From contig JAJDCB010000030.1 of the NCBI GenBank assembly GCA_029261065.1, positions 48,196 through 112,195 of the forward strand: a stretch of DNA of 64,000 nucleotides, read 5' to 3'. The notes beneath the pieces were generated by a model, which ran no database searches, was not told the origin of the DNA, and saw nothing but the letters and a program-made list of their open reading frames with translations. Shown piece after piece: positions 4,672 through 48,431 of this stretch; the first letter of the stretch is position 1, and every line of letters begins with the position of its first letter. The stretch is from Candidatus Omnitrophota bacterium. GTDB taxonomy: Bacteria; Omnitrophota; Gorgyraeia; Zapsychrales; Zapsychraceae. Both the position numbers and the translations under genes were made by a program.

Positions 4672-6231
4672 TTTTTCATTTTTTGCGTAGGATTTTTCGT
4701 AAACCTCAGTGTTTTCAACAGGATGATGAGGTTCTAACCGTTTATGAAGGGCCTGAACTCCTGGGGCTACTTCTCCAACTAGTTCAAGTGGTTTGTCGAG
4801 GGGAATAGATAGCTTTCTATCTAAAAGAAAGAGGTTCGAACCTAAAGCAGCTAGAATATCTCGTTTGTCATCTATCGTACCGAGTTCAAACCTATCTTTA
4901 GCGGTCTCAGCAAAATTCAGCATTGTTTCAGCGCGATCCAGCCACGTTTCTGCACGATTATTGGAATCATTTATTAATTCTTCGTATTTGTGCTTTTCTT
5001 GAATTAGCTTTTCTTTATGTTTTGAGAATTCTTCCGAACTGACCTCCCCGCTTAATCGGAGATCGAGTAATGCATCTAGTTTTCGTTTGCAAGTATCCCA
5101 CGCTTTACGGTGTGCGGTGACAATTTCCTTTTGATCTTCGGTTTCGTTAGCCTGTTCGGCTTTGAGTTGTTTGATTGCCCATTGATGAAATGAGGGAGGG
5201 ATGTTAATCTTGATTAAGGTATCTGTGATCTGTGTTTCAAGATCTTCCATTCGAACAGGTTTTTGAGAACATTTTTTAATTCGTTTAGTACAACGATAGT
5301 AAGTATAGTGATGAGTATTTCCATTTTTTTGATGTTTGGTTTTTTCTTCGGCTGTAATAGCCGCGCCACATTCACCGCAACGGATTAATCCTGTATAAGC
5401 GAAGCTGTGTGTTTTAGAGCAGGTAAAGGATCGTCTATCTAGAATTGTCTGAATCTCATTAAATTGGGATTTACTGATCATGGGTTTATGGTTACCAGGA
5501 TAAAGATTACTTTTCCATTTAAAATGACCATAATAAAATGGGTTACGAAACAACTCATGCATCTTACTTAGACTAAGAGGTTTATTGTTTGACGATGTTA
5601 ACCCAATTTTCTTAGAAAAAGTGTGGATAGATTTAATCGAACATTTTTTCTGGATTAATGTATCCCACAATTTTCTAACGAGTGCAAATTTGTCAGGATC
5701 TTTGTGTATAGGGGGAAGGTCGGGAAGTTTGTGTTTGTTATTCAAATATCCAATAGGTGGTTTATGTGGATACCAGCCATCTTCAACTTTTTTCCGCATA
5801 CCTCGTTTTGTATTTACGCTTAAATCAATTACAAATTGATTCGCCATACCAAATTCCAAGTTCATCATTAAAACGTTGTCAGAGGGCAAATAACCACGTT
5901 GGAAGGTCTGTATGTGTTGGATGATGCCTTGTTGGAGCATCCAGTTAATTTTGCCTCCGTCAATGGGATTTCGAGCTAGGCGGTCAAGTTTCCAGCAAAT
6001 AATACCATTCGCCTGTCCGTTTTGAATAGCATCAAGCATTTCATTGATTATTGGACGACCAGGTGCTTTAGCTGATTTTTCTTCGGTATAAATATCAGTA
6101 ATTTTCAGATTTTTATCTTTAGCAAGGTTTTTAAGTTCACTAATTTGGGAGGGAATGGAGGCTACTTGTTTGTCTTCACTCTCAGAAGATTTTCGTGCAT
6201 AAAGAAAATATTTAATTGGTGTCGAAATCAT
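4660..6231 (-). CDS. large serine recombinase (integrase) of an integrated element
   Basis: N-terminal resolvase catalytic domain YARKSSESEDKQ with the serine nucleophile and LDRLARN, then a recombinase domain. Zinc-ribbon CGECG...CTKRIKKC and a C-terminal coiled-coil are present. The stop overlaps the tRNA-His 3' end by about 12 bp. Confidence 0.85.
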   Translation of the reverse strand: MISTPIKYFLYARKSSESEDKQVASIPSQISELKNLAKDKNLKITDIYTEEKSAKAPGRPIINEMLDAIQNGQANGIICWKLDRLARNPIDGGKINWMLQQGIIQHIQTFQRGYLPSDNVLMMNLEFGMANQFVIDLSVNTKRGMRKKVEDGWYPHKPPIGYLNNKHKLPDLPPIHKDPDKFALVRKLWDTLIQKKCSIKSIHTFSKKIGLTSSNNKPLSLSKMHELFRNPFYYGHFKWKSNLYPGNHKPMISKSQFNEIQTILDRRSFTCSKTHSFAYTGLIRCGECGAAITAEEKTKHQKNGNTHHYTYYRCTKRIKKCSQKPVRMEDLETQITDTLIKINIPPSFHQWAIKQLKAEQANETEDQKEIVTAHRKAWDTCKRKLDALLDLRLSGEVSSEEFSKHKEKLIQEKHKYEELINDSNNRAETWLDRAETMLNFAETAKDRFELGTIDDKRDILAALGSNLFLLDRKLSIPLDKPLELVGEVAPGVQALHKRLEPHHPVENTEVYEKSYAKNEKWGE

Positions 6232-14122: not shown

Positions 14123-14485
14123 ATGAAATTTAAAAATATTATTACATCTTTCCTTCAATATGGACTTGCTATATATGTTTTTATTATTATGGCATTTATA
14201 ATTTCCTTTAAATTAACAGAAGCGGTTTTGGAACCTTTTTATTGTCAACGATTGTTAGTATATGTTACAGGTATATGGATTGTAATGATGTTTCTTTTGA
14301 TAATCATTCATTATAAAATTATTTACCCTTATTCTCGTAGTAGTCCTATTAAAGGTCTTGTAATCCTTGCTTTGATTTTAAATTTTGTCACTTATATAAT
14401 TTCTTCAGGAGACTTTGGGAGTGAGTGTGGGAAGGCTTGGCTTGAATGCAACCAGGGAAATTGCAAAAAATCGAGTGAATTTTAA
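14123..14485 (+). CDS. hypothetical integral membrane protein
   Basis: 120 aa with 3 predicted TM helices and a Cys-rich C-terminus (CGKAWLECNQGNCKK). Confidence 0.3.
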   Translation: MKFKNIITSFLQYGLAIYVFIIMAFIISFKLTEAVLEPFYCQRLLVYVTGIWIVMMFLLIIIHYKIIYPYSRSSPIKGLVILALILNFVTYIISSGDFGSECGKAWLECNQGNCKKSSEF

Positions 14486-14510: not shown

Positions 14511-14547
14511 AAGCAAACAGGTTCTAACCTGTTTCAGCCAGCCACCC
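14511..14547. repeat. 36-bp direct repeat copy 1 (aagcaaacaggttctaacctgtttcagccagccaccc) containing a 7-bp-stem hairpin
   Basis: Identical except for 1 nt to the copy at 16823-16860. Both lie about 25 bp after a + strand stop codon. Hairpin is aaacagg-ttctaa-cctgttt. Confidence 0.6.
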
Positions 14548-15769: not shown

Positions 15770-15850
15770 TTTAGCGTTCAAATTAATTTTTTATTGCGTC
15801 AATTTCGTGTATTATTTGGATGTTATGAAACTTTTTTGTTTGGAGGCCAG

Positions 15851-16798
15851 ATGACGAATAAATCTAATAATCTAAAAAGCATTCAGACAGTTTTTATTCC
15901 CCTAACTACAAAAATTATTTTAATTTTAATTTTAATTTTTTGTTTTTACTCTTCTTCATTTGGGCAGGATATTTCAAATATGGAGGAGCGAATAAAGAAT
16001 GCTCAGATATTTTATGTTAATGAGCAAGTCAATAAGAAGCCTGAAATATATGAAGGGGATAGGTTGGTTTGTAAACTAAAATCGGCAGAAATATATTACG
16101 CTGGTCAAAAAAGCATTAATTATTTGAGCAATGAGACCAGTCAAAAATCTACTGAAGAGTTGCGCTTTAAGTTAGAAATTTTTGGTCCAGAAAAATATAA
16201 TCTTATCCCCAGAGAACGATTATCAAGCAGTGTTATAAAAGGTGGGAAAATAACAATCGCAGAAGATGAAATAGGTAAGAATCTTGTGAGCAATAAATCT
16301 TCAATATCACATGATTCAAATTATTATACTTTTACTCAACATCCTATAACAATGCATGGAGAAGCAACCATTACTGGGCTTCAATTGCCTTCTAAGGATG
16401 CGAAAATATTAAAATTGTTAGAAGGTTATTTAACTGTCCACAATGCAGAACAGACAAGTGAGAAAGAATTGAATCCTTTAATAGGTAATGTAGGAAAAGG
16501 CATTGCGATTAATGAAGAAGCAGAAATTACATTTAAAGTTTATGATGATAATGTTGAATACATTTTAGAGTGGGAGGAGGGTCAAGATAAGCCGTATCTT
16601 GATATAGAGTATTATTCGAAAGACGGCACAAAATTAAAGCGTAAAGGTGGGGGGAGTTCAGGAGTTAATAGGAAAATTGAATATCAGCAGAAGTTTGTTG
16701 AGGCATTTCCTCCTGATGCTTACGTTATAATAAAATATCCAAAAAAAGTAAATGAAATTCAAATTTCTTTTTCTTTTAAGGATATTCCTTTACCATAG
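15851..16798 (+). CDS. hypothetical secreted/membrane-anchored protein
   Basis: A ggagg RBS precedes the ATG at 15851. Long hydrophobic signal-anchor. Track ORF begins at 15794. Confidence 0.4.
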   Translation: MTNKSNNLKSIQTVFIPLTTKIILILILIFCFYSSSFGQDISNMEERIKNAQIFYVNEQVNKKPEIYEGDRLVCKLKSAEIYYAGQKSINYLSNETSQKSTEELRFKLEIFGPEKYNLIPRERLSSSVIKGGKITIAEDEIGKNLVSNKSSISHDSNYYTFTQHPITMHGEATITGLQLPSKDAKILKLLEGYLTVHNAEQTSEKELNPLIGNVGKGIAINEEAEITFKVYDDNVEYILEWEEGQDKPYLDIEYYSKDGTKLKRKGGGSSGVNRKIEYQQKFVEAFPPDAYVIIKYPKKVNEIQISFSFKDIPLP

Positions 16799-16822: not shown

Positions 16823-16860
16823 CAAGCAAACAGGTTCTAACCTGCTTCAGCCAGCCACCC
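16823..16860. repeat. 36-bp direct repeat copy 2 (caagcaaacaggttctaacctgcttcagccagccaccc)
   Basis: Matches 14511-14547. Lies about 30 bp outside the left IR of the IS481 element. Confidence 0.6.
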
Positions 16861-16891
16861 CATTCTGTTTCAGGTCCATACCGGACACATG

Positions 16892-18159
16892 GGTAACAGT
16901 TTGTACCGGAGACATAGGTTACACTATCTCCGGTGCAAACGGGTACTCTAACGGTTCGACTTTTTTGGTTTCTAAATCAAAAAATCCTAAGTCATAATTC
17001 ATAAAAGTAACAAGCCACACATCATCGTTGATTTCTTTAACACCAACGACCTGTCCAGCAAGAGCACGGCTTAAATTAATTTTGTTTCTTCTAATACAAA
17101 TTCTACCGCAATTTGTTACCGTAACAGTTCTATCATGAAAAGGGTAGTTAAGTTCTTCAATTCCTTTGTAAATGCGAGTTGAAGTCTTATATAATTCGCT
17201 AGGGTATTTCATATCAATGGCTTGATGAGGTCTATCTGTATTAAACTCTTGAATAAAGTTATCGAATTTTTCTTGTTGTTGCAATAAGTTTATTCCTGGA
17301 GGTTTTGTTGCCTCTTGTTTGAGTGTTAAATGCATACGTTCATGTCTTCCATTTTGCTGCGGATTACCTGGCTTAATTCTTTCAATAGCAATACCAAGAC
17401 GTAGCCACCAAACAGAAAGTTTGCTTAATCCAAACAGTGCATTGGCAGAAGAGAATGGGAGGCCATTATCTGTACGAATAGTTTTTGGTAAGCCATATTT
17501 CTGAAAAGTTTGTTTTAAGGTGCTGAAGGCATGGATTTCTTTGGTGCTTTCCTGTCCTTCACAAGCGAGTAAATAGCGACTACAGAAGTCTGTAATCGTT
17601 AAGGGATAACAATAAGTTTTATTGCCAAGCATAAATTCACCTTTGTAATCAGCGCACCATAAGTCATTAGGATTTTGATGTTTTGAAAAAGGAGTCCCCT
17701 GAGGTTTAAATCGTCTTCTTTTTCTTCGTTTGACTAAACCATTTCGATCAAGAACACAATGAATAGTGTTTTTAGCAGGAGTCTTTACTTCTGGATACTT
17801 TCGTTTTAATTGTTCTTGTATTTTAGGAGCACCCCAGGAAGGTTTGTCTTGTTTTATTCTTAAGATTTCATTTTCGATTTGAATTGGTAATTTATTTGCG
17901 TAACGATGCGGCTTCCTGGCTCGATTTGTAAGGCCGTGAAGACCGATATCCTTGTAGCGATTCCAAAATTTATAACCTGTCTTTCGTGAGATATCAAATT
18001 CACGGCAAAGTTCAGACATTTTGTCACCTTGTATTAATCTTCCTATAAATTTCATTTTTTCATCCATAATAACACTCTCTTTCCATGGCATATGTAGTAC
18101 CTCCTTATATGCCATTATTGTATAAAGTGTTACCTATGTCTCCGGTATATTGTGTTACC
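16892..18159 (-). mobile_element. IS481-family insertion sequence (about 1.27 kb) with imperfect terminal inverted repeats
   Basis: Left end ggtaacagtttgtaccggagacataggttacact matches the reverse complement of the right end aagtgttacctatgtctccggtatattgtgttacc, about 28/34 identical. It encloses a single DDE transposase gene. No clear target-site duplication was identified. Confidence 0.7.
16919..18115 (-). CDS. IS481-family DDE transposase (integrase core, rve)
   Basis: N-terminal HTH then a DDE/rve core (...TDNGLPF...). The transposase sits within the IRs. The likely true start is MDEKMKFIGRL, near 18067. Confidence 0.8.
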   Translation of the reverse strand: MAYKEVLHMPWKESVIMDEKMKFIGRLIQGDKMSELCREFDISRKTGYKFWNRYKDIGLHGLTNRARKPHRYANKLPIQIENEILRIKQDKPSWGAPKIQEQLKRKYPEVKTPAKNTIHCVLDRNGLVKRRKRRRFKPQGTPFSKHQNPNDLWCADYKGEFMLGNKTYCYPLTITDFCSRYLLACEGQESTKEIHAFSTLKQTFQKYGLPKTIRTDNGLPFSSANALFGLSKLSVWWLRLGIAIERIKPGNPQQNGRHERMHLTLKQEATKPPGINLLQQQEKFDNFIQEFNTDRPHQAIDMKYPSELYKTSTRIYKGIEELNYPFHDRTVTVTNCGRICIRRNKINLSRALAGQVVGVKEINDDVWLVTFMNYDLGFFDLETKKVEPLEYPFAPEIV

Positions 18160-18193
18160 TATCTCTCAGGAAGCACACCGAAGGAAAAAACAA

Positions 18194-20735: not shown

Positions 20736-22937
20736 TTGTGTTCCATGCCTCTGTCCCCAAACCATCACATAATATTTACTAAAAAAAAGTCTATCGTATT
20801 ATTTGCTTTATCTTTTTGTCTTTGGATGTTTTGTTTCAAAGGATTTATATTTGGCGATTTAACACTCACCTCCGATGCGTTGGCCTATTTCGAACATTTT
20901 CAATATTTCTTAAATAATGTCTCTCGTGGTGTTTTTCCTCTGTGGGAACCAGCTCGGCTGGAGGGAACGCCTGTGGATTTCTTCTGGCGACGCATTGGCT
21001 GTTATAATCCTACTTTTAGTCTTATCTTATTATTAAAGACGGTTGGTTTTTCTTATTTAACGTCTTATTTGATATATTTTTCACTGTATTATTTTTTAGG
21101 ATGTTTTGCCTTCTACCTTCTTTGTAACCGTATTTTTAAAAATGCCAACGTTGCTTTTGTTGCCTTTTTATTGTTGTACTTTTCTTCCCTTTCAACCCGT
21201 ATTTTTGATTCTTATATCCTCCTGACATGCGTGCCTTTGAGTTGGTTGTTTTATTTTATTGTTGCCTTTAGCCAATCACCAAAGCGTAAAAATTTTCTTG
21301 GAGCTACATTTAGCATGATGATTCTTCTGACAACGTACGTACCTTTTTATTTTTTTACGATTGTCATGACCTTTGTTTTTTGCTTTTTTATTGTCTATTT
21401 CAAAACATCCCTGTTTTATTTAAAACAGTTTTTAACCTTTATAAAAGACAATAAAGTCTTAGCGGTGCTTTGTACTGCATTTTTGCTAGCATCGTTAATA
21501 CCTGGAATTTTGTTTTTTATCGAGGGGAGAAGTGGGGAGCTGGTCATTCCGTTGCGTCATGGAGAATCGACTTCAGAGAATATGATGGCTGTTGATTATG
21601 TGAATATTACTCGTTGGGGTCTCGAGGAGGATTTGGCTTATTCAGCCGCTTACTCCAATTTAAGAAGGTTTAAATTCGCCATTCTTTATGTTCCTGCCTT
21701 TAGCTTTGTGATTTTGGCTATTGGGTTATTGTTGGGGCTTAGAAAAAGATTGGTGTTTCTTTTTACGTGGGGATTGCTTCTCCTGCTTATGTTTTCACAC
21801 TATGCGCCTATTTATGATTTTTTGTATGATCATATTTTTTATTTTGAATACTTTCGCAATCTTCATTTCTTTTTGTGGATGATTATTTTACCCATTTTTA
21901 TTTTGTTTGTTGCAGAACAATTAAGCATCTATTTTTCCTTAAAAGAAAGAAAAGACATCAAGAATATGGCTATTGTGGTAGTTCCCTTAATTGGGTTGCT
22001 CGTCGTACTTCTTTTACAAAAAGATGCAATTCTTTCAACCTATCTCGTTGTATTTGGATCTTTGCTCTTTTTTGTTCTTTATGGATTAGGGATTCTAAAA
22101 GAAAAGGGATGGGTCTTATCCTGTATCCTTTTAGGATTAATCGTTATTCAGCCGTTAGAAGTTTATCGTTATTTACATCTTAATACGGAAATTTTTGATT
22201 CAGGGTATCGGCAAGTGGAACCAAAACTAACTCTTTCATTGCCTGATAAAGAAACACGAGAAGGTTTGGGTTTAAGTGAGAAATATCGAGATTTAAAAAG
22301 TTATAAAGAAGAGGCGCCTTTTAGTGTTTATATGGGTGTCAGTTGGTTGCATTCTCTTCGACGGGAGTTAAATAATGAGGTTTTTAGTGATTACAGTGCA
22401 AATAAACTGATTCTTTATGATAACGTTCAGTGGGTGGATGACAATGATGTAGATATCGACTTTGTTGGAGATGTGTTTGTTCAGAATAAAAATGTTGCTC
22501 TTATTGCATCAAAGGATCCGCAATTTTTACGAGAAGGGGGATCAAAGACTAAAAATCCACAAGCTCAGTTTGTAACAAAAACTTCTTCTAAAGTGAAAGT
22601 GAAACATTACGATATTAATGATTTGAAATTAGAAACACATTTGGATCGCGATCAGTTTTTAGTCTTTAACGATTCTTTTCATAGTGGTTGGCAGGCGTAT
22701 ATTGATGGAACCAAAGTTGATATTGTTAGGGCGAACCTTGCTTTTAAGGGATTGTGGATTCCAAAGGGGGAACATGTTGTAGTTTTTCGATTTGGACATT
22801 TATGGCAATACGCTTTGAACTTCTCTTTAATGGCCTTGTTTTATGCGGTGTTTGGCTATTTGCTAATTTTATTTTATTGTTGCAAGTATAAGACGAAAAG
22901 TAATAGTGTCGTCCCCGCGAAAGCGGGGATCAAGTAA
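20736..22937 (+). CDS. large polytopic membrane protein, YfhO/GT-C-like (putative glycosyl- or lipid-transferase); C-terminus fused to a palindromic repeat
   Basis: About 14 TM helices then a roughly 250-aa extracytoplasmic C-terminal domain. The last 9 codons (VVPAKAGIK) are encoded by repeat unit 22908-22931. Confidence 0.45.
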   Translation: MCSMPLSPNHHIIFTKKKSIVLFALSFCLWMFCFKGFIFGDLTLTSDALAYFEHFQYFLNNVSRGVFPLWEPARLEGTPVDFFWRRIGCYNPTFSLILLLKTVGFSYLTSYLIYFSLYYFLGCFAFYLLCNRIFKNANVAFVAFLLLYFSSLSTRIFDSYILLTCVPLSWLFYFIVAFSQSPKRKNFLGATFSMMILLTTYVPFYFFTIVMTFVFCFFIVYFKTSLFYLKQFLTFIKDNKVLAVLCTAFLLASLIPGILFFIEGRSGELVIPLRHGESTSENMMAVDYVNITRWGLEEDLAYSAAYSNLRRFKFAILYVPAFSFVILAIGLLLGLRKRLVFLFTWGLLLLLMFSHYAPIYDFLYDHIFYFEYFRNLHFFLWMIILPIFILFVAEQLSIYFSLKERKDIKNMAIVVVPLIGLLVVLLLQKDAILSTYLVVFGSLLFFVLYGLGILKEKGWVLSCILLGLIVIQPLEVYRYLHLNTEIFDSGYRQVEPKLTLSLPDKETREGLGLSEKYRDLKSYKEEAPFSVYMGVSWLHSLRRELNNEVFSDYSANKLILYDNVQWVDDNDVDIDFVGDVFVQNKNVALIASKDPQFLREGGSKTKNPQAQFVTKTSSKVKVKHYDINDLKLETHLDRDQFLVFNDSFHSGWQAYIDGTKVDIVRANLAFKGLWIPKGEHVVVFRFGHLWQYALNFSLMALFYAVFGYLLILFYCCKYKTKSNSVVPAKAGIK

Positions 22938-23020
22938 TAGTTGTTATCGCGCACGGTTCCCCGCTTTCGCGGGGATGACACATTTAGTATCAATAGGTTC
23001 ACGCTTTCACGGGAATGACA
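22908..23020. repeat. cluster of three ATyCCC-N8-GGGrAT palindromic repeat units
   Basis: Units are gtcgtccccgcgaaagcggggatc (22908-22931, +), gttccccgctttcgcggggatgacac (22956-22981, inverted) and ggttcacgctttcacgggaatgaca (22996-23020, inverted, degenerate). The same family occurs at 2170, about 26533 and 44276-44372. Confidence 0.7.
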
Positions 23021-23038
23021 AATTTAGTTGTATAAAAC

Positions 23039-23965
23039 ATGAAATCATTTATTCATTACCTAAAACTCATCTCAACCCGCATTATCATCCTGTATCTCAT
23101 CGGCTATGGCATTATCCACATCTGTTTGGATGCAAAAGCCTCACAGCGTACGGCTAATCTATTGGCCTTAAATCGTATTCGGCCGGAGAGTTTTAATTAT
23201 CTCGTTAAGCTTTCAAAGGAGCAAGTTGAGCCTGATGCAGATAGTATTGATGGGTTTGTTCATTATTATGAAAAGGTCTTACAATTTGTTGGCCATCGCG
23301 CGGATGGTTATGGGCTGTTGGCCTATAGTTTGTGTCAAAAAGGTGAAAAGAAAAAATGTGTGGAAGCTTATAAGAGGGCTATTAAAGAGAATGCGACATT
23401 TTTTTGGTATTATCATAATTTGGGCGTGGTATATTATCAGGATGGTCGATACAAAGAGGCCTTTGATATTCTAAGCCAAGGGGTTGTTTTGCCTCCGGAG
23501 GCAACGTTTACGTATATAGGAACCTCACAGCGCTTGTATGTGCCTTTATTATCAATGGATTCCGAGGATATTCGGCCAAAACTCATTTCAGAATATAGGC
23601 TAGGGCATAAAGATAGTTATTTGATGATGGTTCAAAGCGCTTATGGATTGAAGGATTACAAAGAGGGGCTTCAATTGGCAATAAGAGCGATTGAGAATCA
23701 GTTAGACCAGCGAGGAGAGTTTTATTTTTATGCGGGTTTGGCATCGCATGAATTAAAGGATTATCCTAAAGCTGTGTATTTTTTCAAAGAAAGTATGAAA
23801 AGAGATGAAAAAAATCATGAGGTGGTGTACCATTTAGCGTTAAGTATTCAGGCCGCGGGAAAAGCCCAGATGGCGCAGAAAATTATTCAAAAATCAGAAG
23901 GGCTTAAACGTCTGTCGGGATCAACAGCATATTCAGATCAAAACTTTGCGTTAAAATTGTATTAA
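23039..23965 (+). CDS. TPR-repeat protein with N-terminal membrane anchor
   Basis: Several 34-residue W/LG/Y-A-F/A-P TPR-like repeats (e.g. ATFFWYYHNLGVVYYQDGRYKEAF). Hydrophobic N-terminus. Confidence 0.5.
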   Translation: MKSFIHYLKLISTRIIILYLIGYGIIHICLDAKASQRTANLLALNRIRPESFNYLVKLSKEQVEPDADSIDGFVHYYEKVLQFVGHRADGYGLLAYSLCQKGEKKKCVEAYKRAIKENATFFWYYHNLGVVYYQDGRYKEAFDILSQGVVLPPEATFTYIGTSQRLYVPLLSMDSEDIRPKLISEYRLGHKDSYLMMVQSAYGLKDYKEGLQLAIRAIENQLDQRGEFYFYAGLASHELKDYPKAVYFFKESMKRDEKNHEVVYHLALSIQAAGKAQMAQKIIQKSEGLKRLSGSTAYSDQNFALKLY

Positions 23966-26530: not shown

Positions 26531-26555
26531 GGCATCCCCGCGCGAGGATAACACA
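26531..26555. repeat. degenerate copy of the palindromic repeat family (gcATCCCCgcgcgaggATaacac) in the def-lipA spacer
   Basis: Left arm ATCCCC is intact and the right arm is degenerate. It generates a spurious N-terminal extension (MASPREDN) on the lipA ORF. Confidence 0.4.
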
Positions 26556-26561
26556 ATTCTT

Positions 26562-27449
26562 ATGACTACTACAACACCACAAAAACTTCCCTCCTGGTTC
26601 CGTCAGGACATTCCCAATATAGAAAAAATTCGTTCCATGCAAAAGATGTTTCGTTCAACAGGCTTACATACTGTTTGTGAGAGTGCGCGATGTCCTAATA
26701 TGGGTAAATGCTGGGGGCAGGGAGTTGCTACATTTATGATTCTCGGTGAAATTTGTACACGGGCGTGTCGGTTTTGTGCGGTTAAGGCGGGTCATCCTAT
26801 GAAGGTCGATGAAAAGGAACCAAAACACATTGCTGATGCAGTCAAGGCTTTGCAGTTGCGGTATGTTGTTATAACATCTGTTGCACGCGATGATTTGCCA
26901 GATGAAGGGGCCCAACATTTTTATGAGACGATTCAAGCGGTTCGTCAAGCGATGCCAAATATTAAAATTGAAGTGCTTATTCCAGATTTTTCAAATAAGT
27001 GGGATAGTTTAAAGGTTGTTGTTGATGCAAAACCTGAGGTTGTTAGCCACAATGTTGAGAGTGTTAAACGTTTATCAAACCGGATCCGTCCACAGGCGAG
27101 TTATGAGCGTTCGTTGGATGTTTTAAGGAACTTTAAGAAGCTAGATCGTGATATCTTTACAAAATCAAGTATTATGGTTGGATTAGGAGAAACGGAAGAG
27201 GAACTTATATCGACAATGAAGGATCTTTTGGCTGTTGAATGCGATATTTTAACAATTGGTCAATACCTGGCTCCAACCCAATTAAAGAGACATCTTCCTG
27301 TTGAAACATTTTATACACCGGATCAATTTAAATCATTAAAAACACTTGGCATGAAATTAGGATTTAAACATGTTATGAGCGGTCCCTTGGTAAGAAGTTC
27401 GTTTATCGCTGAAGAAGGGTATCGTGAGTGTGTGGAGAGTTTAGGATAA
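26562..27449 (+). CDS. lipA: lipoyl synthase (radical SAM)
   Basis: N-terminal auxiliary cluster CESARCPNMGKCW and radical-SAM CTRACRFCAV. Start chosen at MTTTTPQKL, downstream of the repeat-derived extension. Confidence 0.8.
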   Translation: MTTTTPQKLPSWFRQDIPNIEKIRSMQKMFRSTGLHTVCESARCPNMGKCWGQGVATFMILGEICTRACRFCAVKAGHPMKVDEKEPKHIADAVKALQLRYVVITSVARDDLPDEGAQHFYETIQAVRQAMPNIKIEVLIPDFSNKWDSLKVVVDAKPEVVSHNVESVKRLSNRIRPQASYERSLDVLRNFKKLDRDIFTKSSIMVGLGETEEELISTMKDLLAVECDILTIGQYLAPTQLKRHLPVETFYTPDQFKSLKTLGMKLGFKHVMSGPLVRSSFIAEEGYRECVESLG

Positions 27450-43588: not shown

Positions 43589-44304
43589 GAGAGATCCCTT
43601 GGAGTCCTATAACTGGTTTATTGTTGGATTTGGATAATACGTTATACGATTACAACAAAGCACATCAACCAGCTTTACGAGAAGTTGTTCAGTTTTTATC
43701 TCAAAAGACTGGAGTTGTTAAAGAGGATATAGAAAAAGAATATGGTGTTGCTCGTGGGATGATTCATCAGCAGTTAAAGGGTAAAGCATCAAGTCATAAT
43801 CGTTTACTGTATTTTCAAAAGTTATTAGAAAATATAAATAAACCCATCATGCCTTATGCCTTAGAAGCGTATGATTTGTATTGGGATGTGTTTATTGAAC
43901 ATATTGTTTTGTTTGATGAGGTGATGTCTTTTTTAGAGAAAAATCAGGATAAAAGGATTTGTATCTTAACGGATTTAACAGCTGATATTCAGCATAAGAA
44001 GTTGCATAAGCTTGGATTAAGTTCTTATATTCACGCCCTTGTAACAAGTGAAGAAGTGGGCGTTGAGAAACCTGATCGCGGGATGTTTGAATGTGGGTTA
44101 AAGAAGTTAGGATGTATGAAAGAAGAGGTTTGTATGATCGGGGATAACTATGAGAAGGATGTGATGGGAGCGGTTGAGTTGGGTATGAAAGCGATTTGGG
44201 TGAATAAGGAGGGGGGGGAGCGTAGGGAGAGAGCTCTGGTTGTGGAGGTTGAGGATTTAAATTTTTCTTTAATGAGTTCCCCGCTTTCGCGGGGACGACA
44301 GTAG
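43585..44304 (+). CDS. HAD-superfamily phosphatase
   Basis: Motif I LLDLDNTLYD, motif III K, motif IV GDNYEKDV. The last about 10 codons (SSPLSRGRQ) come from palindromic repeat unit 44276-44300. Confidence 0.65.
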   Translation: MREIPWSPITGLLLDLDNTLYDYNKAHQPALREVVQFLSQKTGVVKEDIEKEYGVARGMIHQQLKGKASSHNRLLYFQKLLENINKPIMPYALEAYDLYWDVFIEHIVLFDEVMSFLEKNQDKRICILTDLTADIQHKKLHKLGLSSYIHALVTSEEVGVEKPDRGMFECGLKKLGCMKEEVCMIGDNYEKDVMGAVELGMKAIWVNKEGGERRERALVVEVEDLNFSLMSSPLSRGRQ

Positions 44305-44372
44305 TATGCGATCTCTGTTTTCGCGGGGACGACAACTATACTGTCATCCTCGCGAAAGCGGGGATCCGTGCG
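44276..44372. repeat. cluster of palindromic repeat units (gttccccgctttcgcggggacgaca; half-unit gttttcgcggggacgacaa; tgtcatcctcgcgaaagcggggatccgtgcg)
   Basis: Same ATCCCC-N8-GGGGAT family as at 22908-23020. It spans the end of the HAD gene and the start region of the next gene. Confidence 0.7.
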
Positions 44373-44395
44373 GTTTTACTGTTCAAAGAGTAACC

Positions 44396-46042
44396 ATGCA
44401 AATTATAATCCCTATGTCCGGCGTAGGCAAGCGTTTCATTGACGCTGGCTATAAAGATGTTAAACCGTTAATCGAAGTGGACGGTTTGCCTATCATTGCA
44501 CATGTTATCAACATGTTTCCGGGTGAAAATAATTTTACTTTTGTCTGCAATAAAACGCATTTACAAGAAACGCCAATGGAAGAAATTTTAAAAGGTCTTG
44601 CTCCTTTTGGAAAAATTATAGGGATCGAACCTCATAAGAAAGGTCCTGTCTATGCGGTGGCAGAAGTGTTTGACGCAATTGATGAAAGGGAGGAGACAAT
44701 CGTTAACTATTGTGATTTTTCAAAGTATTGGGATTATGATGGCTTTCTTTCTCATACAAGAGCGCGGCAGGCTGATGGTGCGATAGCAGCGTATAAGGGG
44801 TTTCATCCTCATATGTTAGGTTCTACCAATTATGCCTTTATGCGCGACGATCAACAATGGCTTTTAGAAATTCAAGAGAAAGAGCCGTTTACGGATAATC
44901 GTATGCAAGAATATGCTTCTGATGGAACGTATTATTTTAAAAACGGCGGACTCGTAAAAAAATATTTTCAGCAATTGATGGATGAGGATATAAACCTTAA
45001 AGGAGAATATTATATAAGTTTGGTCTATACGTTAATGCTGAGAGATGGTCTTAAGTCTTCTGTTTATGAAATACAACATATGTTGCAATGGGGGGAGCCT
45101 GGACATTTACAAGAGTATCAACAATGGTCAAAATATTTTTCTAAAATGGTTGATGAGACAAAAAGCATTATCAATAATGAAGAGACGATTAATCTAATAC
45201 CTTTAGCTGGACGTGGACAACGATTTGTTGATGAAGGCTATCAAACACCAAAACCTCTTATAGATGTCAGTGGAAAACCAATGATTGTTCAGGCGGCCTC
45301 TTATTTGCCTCAATCGGGGGCGCAAACTTTTATTTGTTTAGAAGATCATCTAAAAGAATATCCTATCAAAGTTGCTCTTCTAGAAGCCTATCCCCAAGCC
45401 AATATTGTTTCCCTTAATGAAGTTACAGAAGGTCAGGCGTGCACGTGTGAGAAAGGAATAAGAGAAGAGGATTATGATAAACCGTTGTTTATTGCCGCCT
45501 CAGATAATGGAATGATATGGTCTGAAAAAAAGTTGCAATCCTTATTGGATGATACCTCAATAGGTTGTCTCGTTTGGAGTTTCCGGCATCATCCTTCAAG
45601 CGCTCAAAATCCTCAAATGTATGGTTGGATTAAAACGGATGAGAAAGAAAATGTTTTAGGCGTCTCAGTTAAAGTTCCAATTTCAGATGATCCGTTTAAT
45701 GATCATGCCATCATCGGGGCTTTTTATTTTCGTAAAGCCAGATTTTTTATTGATGCATTAGAACGACTTTATAAGAGTGATGTTCGTGTTAATAATGAAT
45801 TTTATGTCGATAGCTGCATTAACGAAATTGTGGCCATGGGTTTAAAGGCAAAAGTCTTTGAGGTGGATCATTATATCTGTTGGGGAACGCCGAATGATTT
45901 AAAAACATACGAATACTGGCAAAGTTATTTTCATAAAAGTGATCAACATCCGTATTGTTTAGAGAAAGATCGGAGAATGGAGTTAAGTAAATTGAAGGAT
46001 TATGAAAAAAAATATTCTTCTTTTAAACAGGAGCACAATTAA
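44396..46042 (+). CDS. tandem double nucleotidyltransferase (two sugar-phosphate/alcohol-phosphate NTP-transferase domains, LicC/IspD-like)
   Basis: Duplicated N-terminal signatures IIPMSGVGKRF...KPLIEVDGLPII and LIPLAGRGQRF...KPLIDVSGKPMI. Start placed at MQIIIPMSG (ATG 44396), because the upstream 30 codons are repeat-derived. Confidence 0.55.
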   Translation: MQIIIPMSGVGKRFIDAGYKDVKPLIEVDGLPIIAHVINMFPGENNFTFVCNKTHLQETPMEEILKGLAPFGKIIGIEPHKKGPVYAVAEVFDAIDEREETIVNYCDFSKYWDYDGFLSHTRARQADGAIAAYKGFHPHMLGSTNYAFMRDDQQWLLEIQEKEPFTDNRMQEYASDGTYYFKNGGLVKKYFQQLMDEDINLKGEYYISLVYTLMLRDGLKSSVYEIQHMLQWGEPGHLQEYQQWSKYFSKMVDETKSIINNEETINLIPLAGRGQRFVDEGYQTPKPLIDVSGKPMIVQAASYLPQSGAQTFICLEDHLKEYPIKVALLEAYPQANIVSLNEVTEGQACTCEKGIREEDYDKPLFIAASDNGMIWSEKKLQSLLDDTSIGCLVWSFRHHPSSAQNPQMYGWIKTDEKENVLGVSVKVPISDDPFNDHAIIGAFYFRKARFFIDALERLYKSDVRVNNEFYVDSCINEIVAMGLKAKVFEVDHYICWGTPNDLKTYEYWQSYFHKSDQHPYCLEKDRRMELSKLKDYEKKYSSFKQEHN

Positions 46043-47360: not shown

Positions 47361-48431
47361 ATGAAACAAGAAATTACGATAAACGATCCTTTAGAAAAAT
47401 ATCAGAAGGAGCTTTCTGATATTAAGTTTGCTCTTGATGCTTCGACCATTGTTGCGATGACCGACCAAAAGGGCAAGATCACTTATGTTAATGATAAGTT
47501 CTGCAAAATATCTCAGTATAGTCGTGATGAACTCATAGGAGAAGATCATCGCATTATTAATTCGAACCATCACCCTAAAGAGTTTTTTAAAAATTTGTGG
47601 GATACAATTAAAAAGGGAGAGGTTTGGAGTGGAGAAATTAAGAATAGAACGAGAAGGGGGACTTATTATTGGGTTAGCACGACCATTGTTCCTTTTCTAG
47701 ATTTTGAAGGTAAGCCCTATCAGTATGTGGCTATTCGTCATGAAATAACAAAACGTAAAGAGATGGAGGCGGCTGTTAAGCAGTTGCCACAACGCATTAT
47801 TCATGCGCAGGAAAAAGAAAGAGAAGGGATCTCGCGAGAAATTCATGATGACTTAGGGCAATCCTTGGCTATGCTAAAGATGTCGATTCAGTCGACGATT
47901 CATAATGATCAACTGAGACCGGAAATAGCGTCATACGAGAAGATATTGCAATATCTAAATAAGATTATTGATAAAACTCGCCATTTAGCTTCTGGCTTAA
48001 GGCCTTCTACATTAGAGGTTGTTGGATTAACGACAGCTTTAAAAACTCTTATTAACGATTTTAAGACGTATTCTTCAATTGAAGTTCATTTTCATTGTAT
48101 TGATCTAGAAGATTTTAATTTTAAAGGTGAGGTGATAAATATTTACAGAATTGTTCAAGAAGCCTTAAATAACATTACTAAACATTCTCAAGCGAGTACT
48201 CTTAACATTGATATTAACTATTGTGATCAGATGTTAAATCTTAGCATTAAAGACAATGGAGTTGGCATGGAGATAGAGAGTAGTTCTTTTGAAAATAGTG
48301 TAGTTGGTGGCTTGGGGCTTACGACGATAAAAGAACGTGTTAGCATGCTTAAAGGAGAAATGTTCATTAAATCAAAATCTAATCAAGGAACAAAACTTTT
48401 GTTTCGTATCCCAGTTGATAAGAAAGGTTGA
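47361..48431 (+). CDS. PAS sensor histidine kinase (HisKA_3 / NarX-type)
   Basis: PAS ([26 protein letters not shown]), H-box [17 protein letters not shown], and HATPase N/G boxes ([18 protein letters not shown]). Confidence 0.75.

Follow-up and report, generated by a model that had tools for sequence, protein, structure and literature searches.

The 64,000-nt stretch analysed here (the window; positions 48,196 to 112,195 of contig JAJDCB010000030.1 in assembly GCA_029261065.1, from a Candidatus Omnitrophota bacterium) has a guanine-plus-cytosine (GC) content of about 35% and carries nearly all of its genes on the + strand; the closest named homologues of its proteins belong to Candidatus Omnitrophota. 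Alignment places seven related units of a short hairpin repeat at three loci in the window, 2170-2194, 22907-23020 and 44276-44366, and at all three of these the repeat lies directly 3' of a gene and between co-directional neighbors. The first locus is 33 nt past the stop codon of an open reading frame (ORF) at 538-2136 and ahead of a second ORF at 2208-2798, both of which are genes for iron-sulfur (Fe-S) proteins. The cluster at 22.9 kb separates the gene for a YfhO-like membrane protein from that for a TPR protein, and the cluster at 44.3 kb separates the gene for a HAD hydrolase from that for a nucleotidyltransferase. The repeat is a real but ordinary feature that belongs to a kind already described as the CGTC-1 class of repetitive extragenic palindromes (REPs), which also goes by the names dRS3, NTS, Ssn-related motif (SRM) and RPE-6. 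Its main value here is for annotation, as it explains odd tails on two proteins and exposes a spurious 30-residue N-terminus in a 578-aa public gene call.

Seven hairpin units at three loci

The units share the consensus TGTC-RTCCCCGC-GAAA-GCGGGGAW-C, in which an unpaired TGTC precedes an 8-bp stem that closes a 4-nt loop and is followed by a C. The TGTC stands immediately 5' of the stem in 7/7 units, and the loop is GAAA in six of them and GACA in unit A, the singleton (2170-2194, + strand; TGTC-ATTCCCGA-GACA-TCGGGAAT-C; DNA hairpin of -7.7 kcal/mol, z = -3.9), which also differs from the other units by two compensated changes in the stem. The 22.9-kb cluster is made of unit B (22907-22931, + strand; TGTC-GTCCCCGC-GAAA-GCGGGGAT-C; DNA hairpin of -9.2 kcal/mol), unit C (22956-22980, - strand; TGTCATCCCCGCGAAAGCGGGGAAC) and the decayed unit D (22996-23020, - strand; TGTCATTCCCGTGAAAGCGTGAACC), while the 44.3-kb cluster holds unit E (44276-44300, - strand; TGTCGTCCCCGCGAAAGCGGGGAAC), the decayed unit F (44310-44334, - strand; TGTCGTCCCCGCGAAAACAGAGATC) and unit G (44342-44366, + strand; TGTCATCCTCGCGAAAGCGGGGATC). 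When G-T wobble is allowed, all eight stem positions pair in A, B and G and seven of eight pair in C and E; stable DNA hairpins (-6.4 to -9.4 kcal/mol) are predicted for these five units and none for D and F. The first base of the stem is A in units A, C, D and G but G in units B, E and F, and the tails that follow the stems (CTA, CAA, CCG, CCT, CTC, CGC and CCG) always begin with C and are never CCA.

The match statistics exclude a chance origin of these repeats. A search of the window for the 25-mer TGTCRTCCCCGCGAAAGCGGGGAWC with up to three mismatches, which is the number found in unit F, gave five matches against 0.00 expected, and the exact motif TGTCRTYCCCG was found six times where 0.03 matches were expected. 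With a profile derived from copies in other genomes, units B, C, E and G were recovered at E values of 1e-9 (unit B) to 1e-7, unit F at E = 5e-4 and unit D weakly (E = 1.7). In addition, units B and C are unchanged in a separate Logan assembly of run SRR15505515 (contig L001).

An earlier reading of this DNA, made from its sequence only, had described five loci of palindromes with 6-bp arms around an 8-nt spacer. The palindromic hairpin is borne out, although its architecture is better described by the tag, stem, loop and trailing C given above, and three loci with seven units were recovered, whereas the degenerate copy proposed at 26533-26549 was not supported (profile E = 15; no hairpin and a fold z of +0.97). 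The pattern search that the same reading had proposed, ATYCCC-N8-GGGRAT, returned four matches in the window against 0.46 expected when up to one mismatch was allowed. A further candidate from the repeat search, at 5036-5064, was not significant (profile E = 90).

The two clusters differ in their arrangement. Units B and C are paired head-to-head, their tags pointing outward and 24 nt lying between them, and D repeats C in tandem with a period of 40 nt. Units E and G are paired tail-to-tail, their tags pointing inward, and F repeats E in tandem with a period of 34 nt. When folded as RNA, the segments that contain the clusters are each predicted to form a long hairpin, with -58.5 kcal/mol for 22880-23045 (z = -5.9) and -67.4 kcal/mol for 44255-44400 (z = -8.4).

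Two direct copies of the 10-bp sequence AAGTAATAGT, at 22898-22907 and 22932-22941 on the + strand, flank unit B, again with a 34-nt period. Because the F-E tandem has an equal period and because TGTTATCGCG resembles a decayed unit, this repeat most likely represents the leader of a following tandem unit that has decayed (AAGTAATAGT-TGTTATCGCG) and not a target-site duplication. Among 139 copies in other genomes, the longest flanking direct repeats followed the distribution obtained by shuffled pairing, with no excess that would indicate target-site duplications.

Insertion within gene pairs and repeat-encoded termini

At both cluster-bearing junctions, more distant homologues (46-53% identical) retain the gene order with gaps of 0-5 nt. 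In locus L185 (GCA_023247445.1) the YfhO and TPR genes overlap by 1 base and are followed by a gene for a 388-aa protein, as in the window, and locus L186 (GCA_964630825.1) retains the succession PRK-like, HAD, nucleotidyltransferase, GT2, with 5 nt between the HAD and nucleotidyltransferase genes. Neither of these homologous loci contains a repeat unit. Because they keep the gene order without the units, both clusters are evidently insertions inside conserved operon-like gene pairs and not island borders, and the proposal that the repeats mark breakpoints of accessory segments therefore fails. We also note that L185:6001-12247 contains two successive YfhO-TPR pairs (723 + 306 aa and 745 + 307 aa), where the window has one pair.

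Since junctions of 0-5 nt leave no spacer, an insertion could hardly have spared the last codons of the upstream gene, so rewritten termini are to be expected. The YfhO-like protein (733 aa) ends ...KSNS-VVPAKAGIK*, and its last nine codons and stop (22908-22937) come from unit B. The HAD hydrolase (239 aa) ends ...FSLM-SSPLSRGRQ*, and its last nine codons and stop (44275-44304, + strand) run through unit E. Both C-terminal tails are repeat-encoded, exactly as the sequence-only reading had claimed, and the comparison with orthologs that it called for agrees: the tail VVPAKAGIK is absent from 19/19 YfhO homologues (33-45% identity), most of which end earlier, and all 14 of the 14 aligned HAD homologues stop 6-10 residues before the end of the window protein.

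A third gene is affected at its other end. The nucleotidyltransferase is given in public gene calls as a 578-aa form, in which the 30 codons from the ATG at 44306 to 44395 (+ strand; MRSLFSRGRQLYCHPRESGDPCGFTVQRVT) are read through units F and G. Its Pfam domain begins at residue 37 of this extended ORF, the extension is followed by MQIIIPMSG, and a homologue that is 60% identical (L186:5693-7444) begins with MQIIIP. In the alignment, the MQIIIP of this homologue falls at residue 31 of the longer reading; the true start is therefore the ATG at 44396, which makes the 30-aa extension an annotation artefact. Repeat DNA had been proposed to create a false N-terminal extension on lipA as well; in this second case the public calls disagree on the start (TTG 26529 and 306 aa at NCBI versus ATG 26562 and 295 aa in Logan), and the sequence 5' of the lipA ATG at 26562 is not supported as a repeat unit. 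As a separate observation on the nucleotidyltransferase, the L186 homologue carries at ~5837-5990 an in-frame GC-rich insertion of 51 aa (SVRGAHPERARRASRRASDEEILRLRPSASPQDSAQDEG...) that the window protein lacks; the DNA of this insertion looks partly self-complementary by eye, yet the repeat search found no inverted repeat in it, and it may be another intragenic repeat.

The writing of protein ends by such repeats has published precedent, as has the comparison with dRS3. The new points are modest, namely a host lineage that is new for the family, insertions inside operons, a public gene model with a false N-terminus derived from the repeat, and the independent confirmation of a link to GIY-YIG genes that is described below. 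About 10% of CGTC repeats are located at ORF ends, and the supplement of the same study lists CGTC-1-encoded VIPAKAGI at the C-termini of Rickettsia conorii RC0483, RC0809 and RC1048, VVPAKAGM/T in sphingomonads, and CHSRESGNP/CHSRESGDP (Di Nocera et al., 2013; PMC3733652). A similar fraction was found among the sampled loci from other genomes, in which 24 of 215 core matches (11%) close an open reading frame that is 150 codons or longer. The tails ...SPLSRG* and ...VVPAKAGTQ* recur in these loci, and in the former the TGA stop comes from the reverse complement of GTCAT.

The CGTC-1 family and associated GIY-YIG genes

By definition, CGTC-1 REPs carry the tag CGTC or TGTC before a stem of 8 bp that encloses a loop of 4 nt; the stem nearly always starts with complementary A and T in positions 1 and 2, and the short, unpaired tail is mostly CCA (Di Nocera, De Gregorio and Rocco, 2013, BMC Genomics 14:522; PMC3733652). 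They are dispersed, multicopy elements, mainly head-to-head dimers, that are found 3' of ORFs where the neighboring genes are co-directional or convergent, and Neisseria dRS3 and R. conorii RPE-6 are stated to be members (PMC3733652). Because all seven units in the window have the TGTC, the 8-bp stem and the 4-nt loop of this definition, they are very probably CGTC-1/dRS3-type REPs. Their occurrence as dimers or small groups, their position 3' of ORFs and the VIPAKAGI-type peptides at ORF ends are further likenesses, whereas the C-initial tails without CCA, the stems of B, E and F that begin with G instead of A, and an Omnitrophota-like host of 35% GC that lies beyond the five phyla of the 2013 list set the window units apart.

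The earlier comparison with dRS3 and Rickettsia RPE elements is thus upheld, as CGTC-1 is equated with dRS3 and RPE-6 in the published work (PMC3733652), but the strict dRS3 pattern ATTCCC-N8-GGGAAT is matched exactly by unit A alone, with one mismatch needed for B, C and G, and the resemblance to dRS3 lies at the CGTC-1 level. Among the Rickettsia palindromic elements compared (RPE-6 and RPE-4), RPE-6 brings the same peptides (VIPAKAGI, CHSRESGNP and SFPRKRES) inside proteins; the Rickettsia copies are often in-frame in the middle of a gene, whereas the window units touch only the last nine codons of two genes.

The core of the element is widespread. In a scan of one genome per species, the exact 22-mer GTCRTCCCCGCGAAAGCGGGGA was found in at least 120 genome loci, and most of the matches listed are from Alphaproteobacteria (Devosia, Sphingomonas, Bradyrhizobium and Afipia). 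Copies in other genomes have a conserved Y before the GTC and YCCA after the stem, with CCA as the tail in 121 of 246 units, and neighboring units there are paired head-to-head in 55 cases, tail-to-tail in five and in tandem in six, in agreement with the published preference for head-to-head dimers. A metagenome scan for the core joined to the CCGTGCG tail that units C and G have in common gave no match. The window extends the range of the CGTC-1/SRM hairpins to an Omnitrophota-like genome, and the scans also place them in contigs labelled Patescibacteria.

A protein partner for hairpins of this kind is known from Neisseria. The NTS sequence, CGTCATTCCCGCGMAVGCGGGAATCYRG, encompasses dRS3, and SsnA, a 94-aa single-domain GIY-YIG nuclease, binds and cuts NTS solely as single-stranded DNA and on one strand only; the GTC before the stem and the C after it are the positions most important for cleavage and binding, and in N. 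meningitidis the SsnA-NTS pair reduces the integration of transforming DNA that carries NTS (Nat Commun 2025; PMC11893778). In many bacteria, ssn homologues are flanked by such motifs, which were named 'Ssn-related motifs' and sought with the search sequence HGTCWYN(0-2)YYVSBRHN(0-5)WNVSBRGN(0-2)RNCYNB (PMC11893778). All seven window units keep the GTC before the stem and the C after it, and units C and G fit the published SRM search sequence exactly, against 0.08 matches expected in shuffled sequence. The likeness to the NTS-SsnA system thus includes the hairpin architecture, the strand-specific flanks, the fit of unit A to the dRS3 pattern and that of C and G to the SRM. The differences include the stem itself (ATCCCCGC in the window versus ATTCCCGC), a window without an ssn gene, and the lack of any visible link in the window to natural transformation or to phage or insertion sequence (IS) insertion.

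The sampled loci of other genomes tie the 22-mer to the same class of nuclease. A jackhmmer search of 182 such loci found six ORFs that encode single-domain GIY-YIG proteins (PF01541, E = 3e-15 to 9e-18; loci L113, L133, L145, L148, L151 and L155). All six genes are 0-85 nt from a unit, and three are arranged REP(+)-gene-REP(-) with the tags outward; these complete units are located at L151:484-874, L148:1025-1420 and, on the reverse strand, L145 ~1709-2264. The GIY-YIG protein of L151 shares 57% identity (E = 2e-27) with the product of a 94-aa ORF of N. gonorrhoeae that is flanked by NTS/dRS3. The hairpins thus travel with Ssn-type GIY-YIG genes, a small independent confirmation of the published association, and the identical 22-mer flanks Ssn homologues in other genomes. 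Clustering of the neighboring genes in 120 loci, restricted to ORFs of 100 aa or more, revealed no recurrent partner, at a size cut-off that misses GIY-YIG genes of ~97 aa.

Some features of these loci deserve mention in their own right. The upstream unit in L151, L148 and L145 is followed by a conserved stretch, ATCTTGTAA...TATAAT, that resembles a promoter with -35 and -10 elements, part of which would come from the repeat tail, and the tail of unit B in the window (ATCAAGTAATAGT) resembles this stretch. In addition, the Ssn-like ORF at L145:1709-2209 (- strand) is lengthened to 167 aa, where its homologues have ~97 aa, by reading through the downstream unit (...DPRFRGDDN), so the nuclease gene itself undergoes the tail-writing seen in other genes.

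Origin of the units and other repeats in the window

The reading that we favor, with a probability of about three in four, is that the window units are CGTC-1 elements, non-autonomous copies of an Ssn-type system, that were inserted at operon junctions and in doing so wrote tails onto the upstream proteins. Each unit would act as a strand-specific single-stranded DNA hairpin, in which an unpaired 5' (T/C)GTC leads into a GC-rich stem of 8 bp with a GNRA-type 4-nt loop, and a C comes directly after the stem. In Neisseria and Wolbachia, a single-domain GIY-YIG nuclease of ~94 aa (Ssn) binds this hairpin and cuts the single strand just upstream of the palindrome, and the ssn gene is itself flanked by the repeats, in an IS-like arrangement. 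The seven non-autonomous copies would have spread, or been copied, into three intergenic spots right after the 3' ends of co-directional genes, two of which now hold three-unit clusters, one built on a head-to-head dimer and one on a tail-to-tail dimer, each with a tandem neighbor. At both junctions the genes would originally have been 0-5 nt apart, so the insertions probably overwrote the last native codons, and the YfhO-like and HAD proteins now take their final nine codons and their stop from the repeat. We infer that this genome encodes an Ssn homologue that acts on the units, and such a protein is somewhat favored as their cognate enzyme. The clusters may also affect the transcripts of the two operons.

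Several observations weigh against this reading. The SRM search sequence is passed by two of the seven units, and the other five fail it at position 5, where B, E and F carry a G in place of the required A or T, or in the tail, which is not the usual CCA. The window contains no Ssn homologue detectable by jackhmmer, and in a protein search seeded with an Ssn homologue the source contig (395,355 nt) is not among the matches listed. The roles demonstrated for Ssn are the cutting of single-stranded DNA and the modulation of transformation, and the copying of repeats is not one of them (PMC11893778). Copies of the element in this organism were counted within the 64-kb window, which holds seven. 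The titles of the other records that contain the 22-mer name Beta-, Gamma- and Deltaproteobacteria, Magnetococcales, Patescibacteria, Omnitrophota, Hydrogenedentota, Gemmatimonadaceae, Planctomycetota and Chloroflexi; the phylum labels on contigs of metagenome-assembled genomes may include binning errors. Finally, a preprint ties the Neisseria dRS3-type master sequence ATTCCCGCGCAGGCGGGAATC to a Group 2 RAYT, which would be another candidate for the mobilizing enzyme of the family (10.1101/2021.07.10.451892).

That preprint speaks for an alternative in which the units are REPINs (inverted REP pairs) moved in trans by a RAYT, a Y1/HUH transposase, as are the GTAG-type REPs of Escherichia coli and Pseudomonas; it also describes decay of the REPINs where the RAYT gene is frameshifted (10.1101/2021.07.10.451892). 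The inverted doublets B-C and E-G, which fold into long hairpins, suit this explanation. Other traits that the two systems have in common are short hairpins, an intergenic location 3' of genes and an enzyme gene in single copy with repeats on both sides. However, the tag is TGTC (C/TGTC in the family) and not GTAG, and the partner gene in the sampled loci is for a GIY-YIG nuclease and not a Y1 transposase: GIY-YIG genes abut units in 6/6 cases, and the 2013 study found no CGTC repeat next to any tyrosine transposase gene (PMC3733652). In the window, phmmer with the E. coli RayT (L123:1638-2135) found no homologue among 288 ORFs (best E = 0.18). In the 1.29 Mb around the 182 loci, the one significant match was L165:11640-12377, a Y1_Tnp gene (Pfam E = 3e-6) that is not flanked by units and has its nearest unit 4 kb away, and a jackhmmer search of these loci seeded with it gave nothing further. 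Mobilization by a RAYT is thus quite unlikely. The L165 gene is RAYT-like (YIHTNP motif) and lies on a 37.7%-GC metagenome contig that has three CGTC-1 units, none of them adjacent to it, and other small hairpins flank it. Another possibility on the side of mobility is that REP-ssn-REP units are true mobile elements, with the GIY-YIG single-stranded DNA nuclease as their sole protein, that seed non-autonomous hairpins and have recently crossed phyla. The 22-nt core that is unchanged across phylum labels, from Neisseria-like proteobacteria to Patescibacteria and Omnitrophota, would fit this proposal, as would intact GC-rich copies in a 35%-GC genome and insertions at operon junctions of 0-5 nt, and if it were true the 10-bp repeat around unit B would be a target-site duplication. 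A GIY-YIG-driven class of transposon is so far an idea raised in the literature (PMC11893778), and we regard this proposal as unlikely.

A different view is that the hairpins are mainly RNA elements (mRNA stabilizers, RNase sites or terminators) that are selected in place and are not mobile or selfish copies. Many REPs have been argued to act as RNA elements (PMC3733652), and the location of all three loci just downstream of ORFs between co-directional genes, from which the units are probably transcribed, and the very stable RNA folds predicted for both clusters (z of -5.9 and -8.4) are in line with it. Against this, the units occur in both orientations at one site, two of them have decayed, the same 22-mer is found in unrelated contexts under many phylum labels, the L185 and L186 junctions do without any element, and the units have no Rfam match, tRNA-His being the only Rfam family found in the window. 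Intrinsic terminators were also sought and rejected, with no terminator-like site in 22600-23300 and no T-run after any unit. A primary role as RNA is therefore very unlikely, while a secondary, co-opted RNA effect may exist. Chance palindromes, or the remnant of a CRISPR array, can be set aside with near certainty. The unit core, which we take to resemble type I-E CRISPR repeats, does share with their stems a superficial TCCCCGC-N4-GCGGGGA pattern, and the units are in small clusters; however, no matches are expected by chance, orientations are mixed within a cluster, the periods are 34, 40 and 49 nt versus ~61 nt, there are no unique spacers, and the same element stands alone at 2170. As for the suggestion that the repeats serve as recombination hotspots or as IS or phage targets, such a role is to our knowledge known in the literature for Neisseria only.

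The window also contains two elements of other kinds. One, at 16881-18170 and without relation to the hairpin units, is an insertion sequence of the IS481 family; its imperfect terminal inverted repeats, each 45 nt long (16881-16925 and 18126-18170), are 80% complementary, and it encodes a 398-aa transposase on the - strand (16919-18115; rve, rve_3, HTH_32 and LZ_Tnp_IS481), and the Logan contig L001 ends inside it. The other is a second, unrelated hairpin repeat, AAGCAAACAGGTTCTAACCTG(T/C)TTCAGCCAGCCACCC, present in two copies that are 97% identical (14511-14547 and 16824-16860). Both copies lie just 3' of ORFs without a Pfam match (14123-14485 and 15794-16798, respectively), and 20 nt separate the second one from the left end of the IS481 element that follows it.

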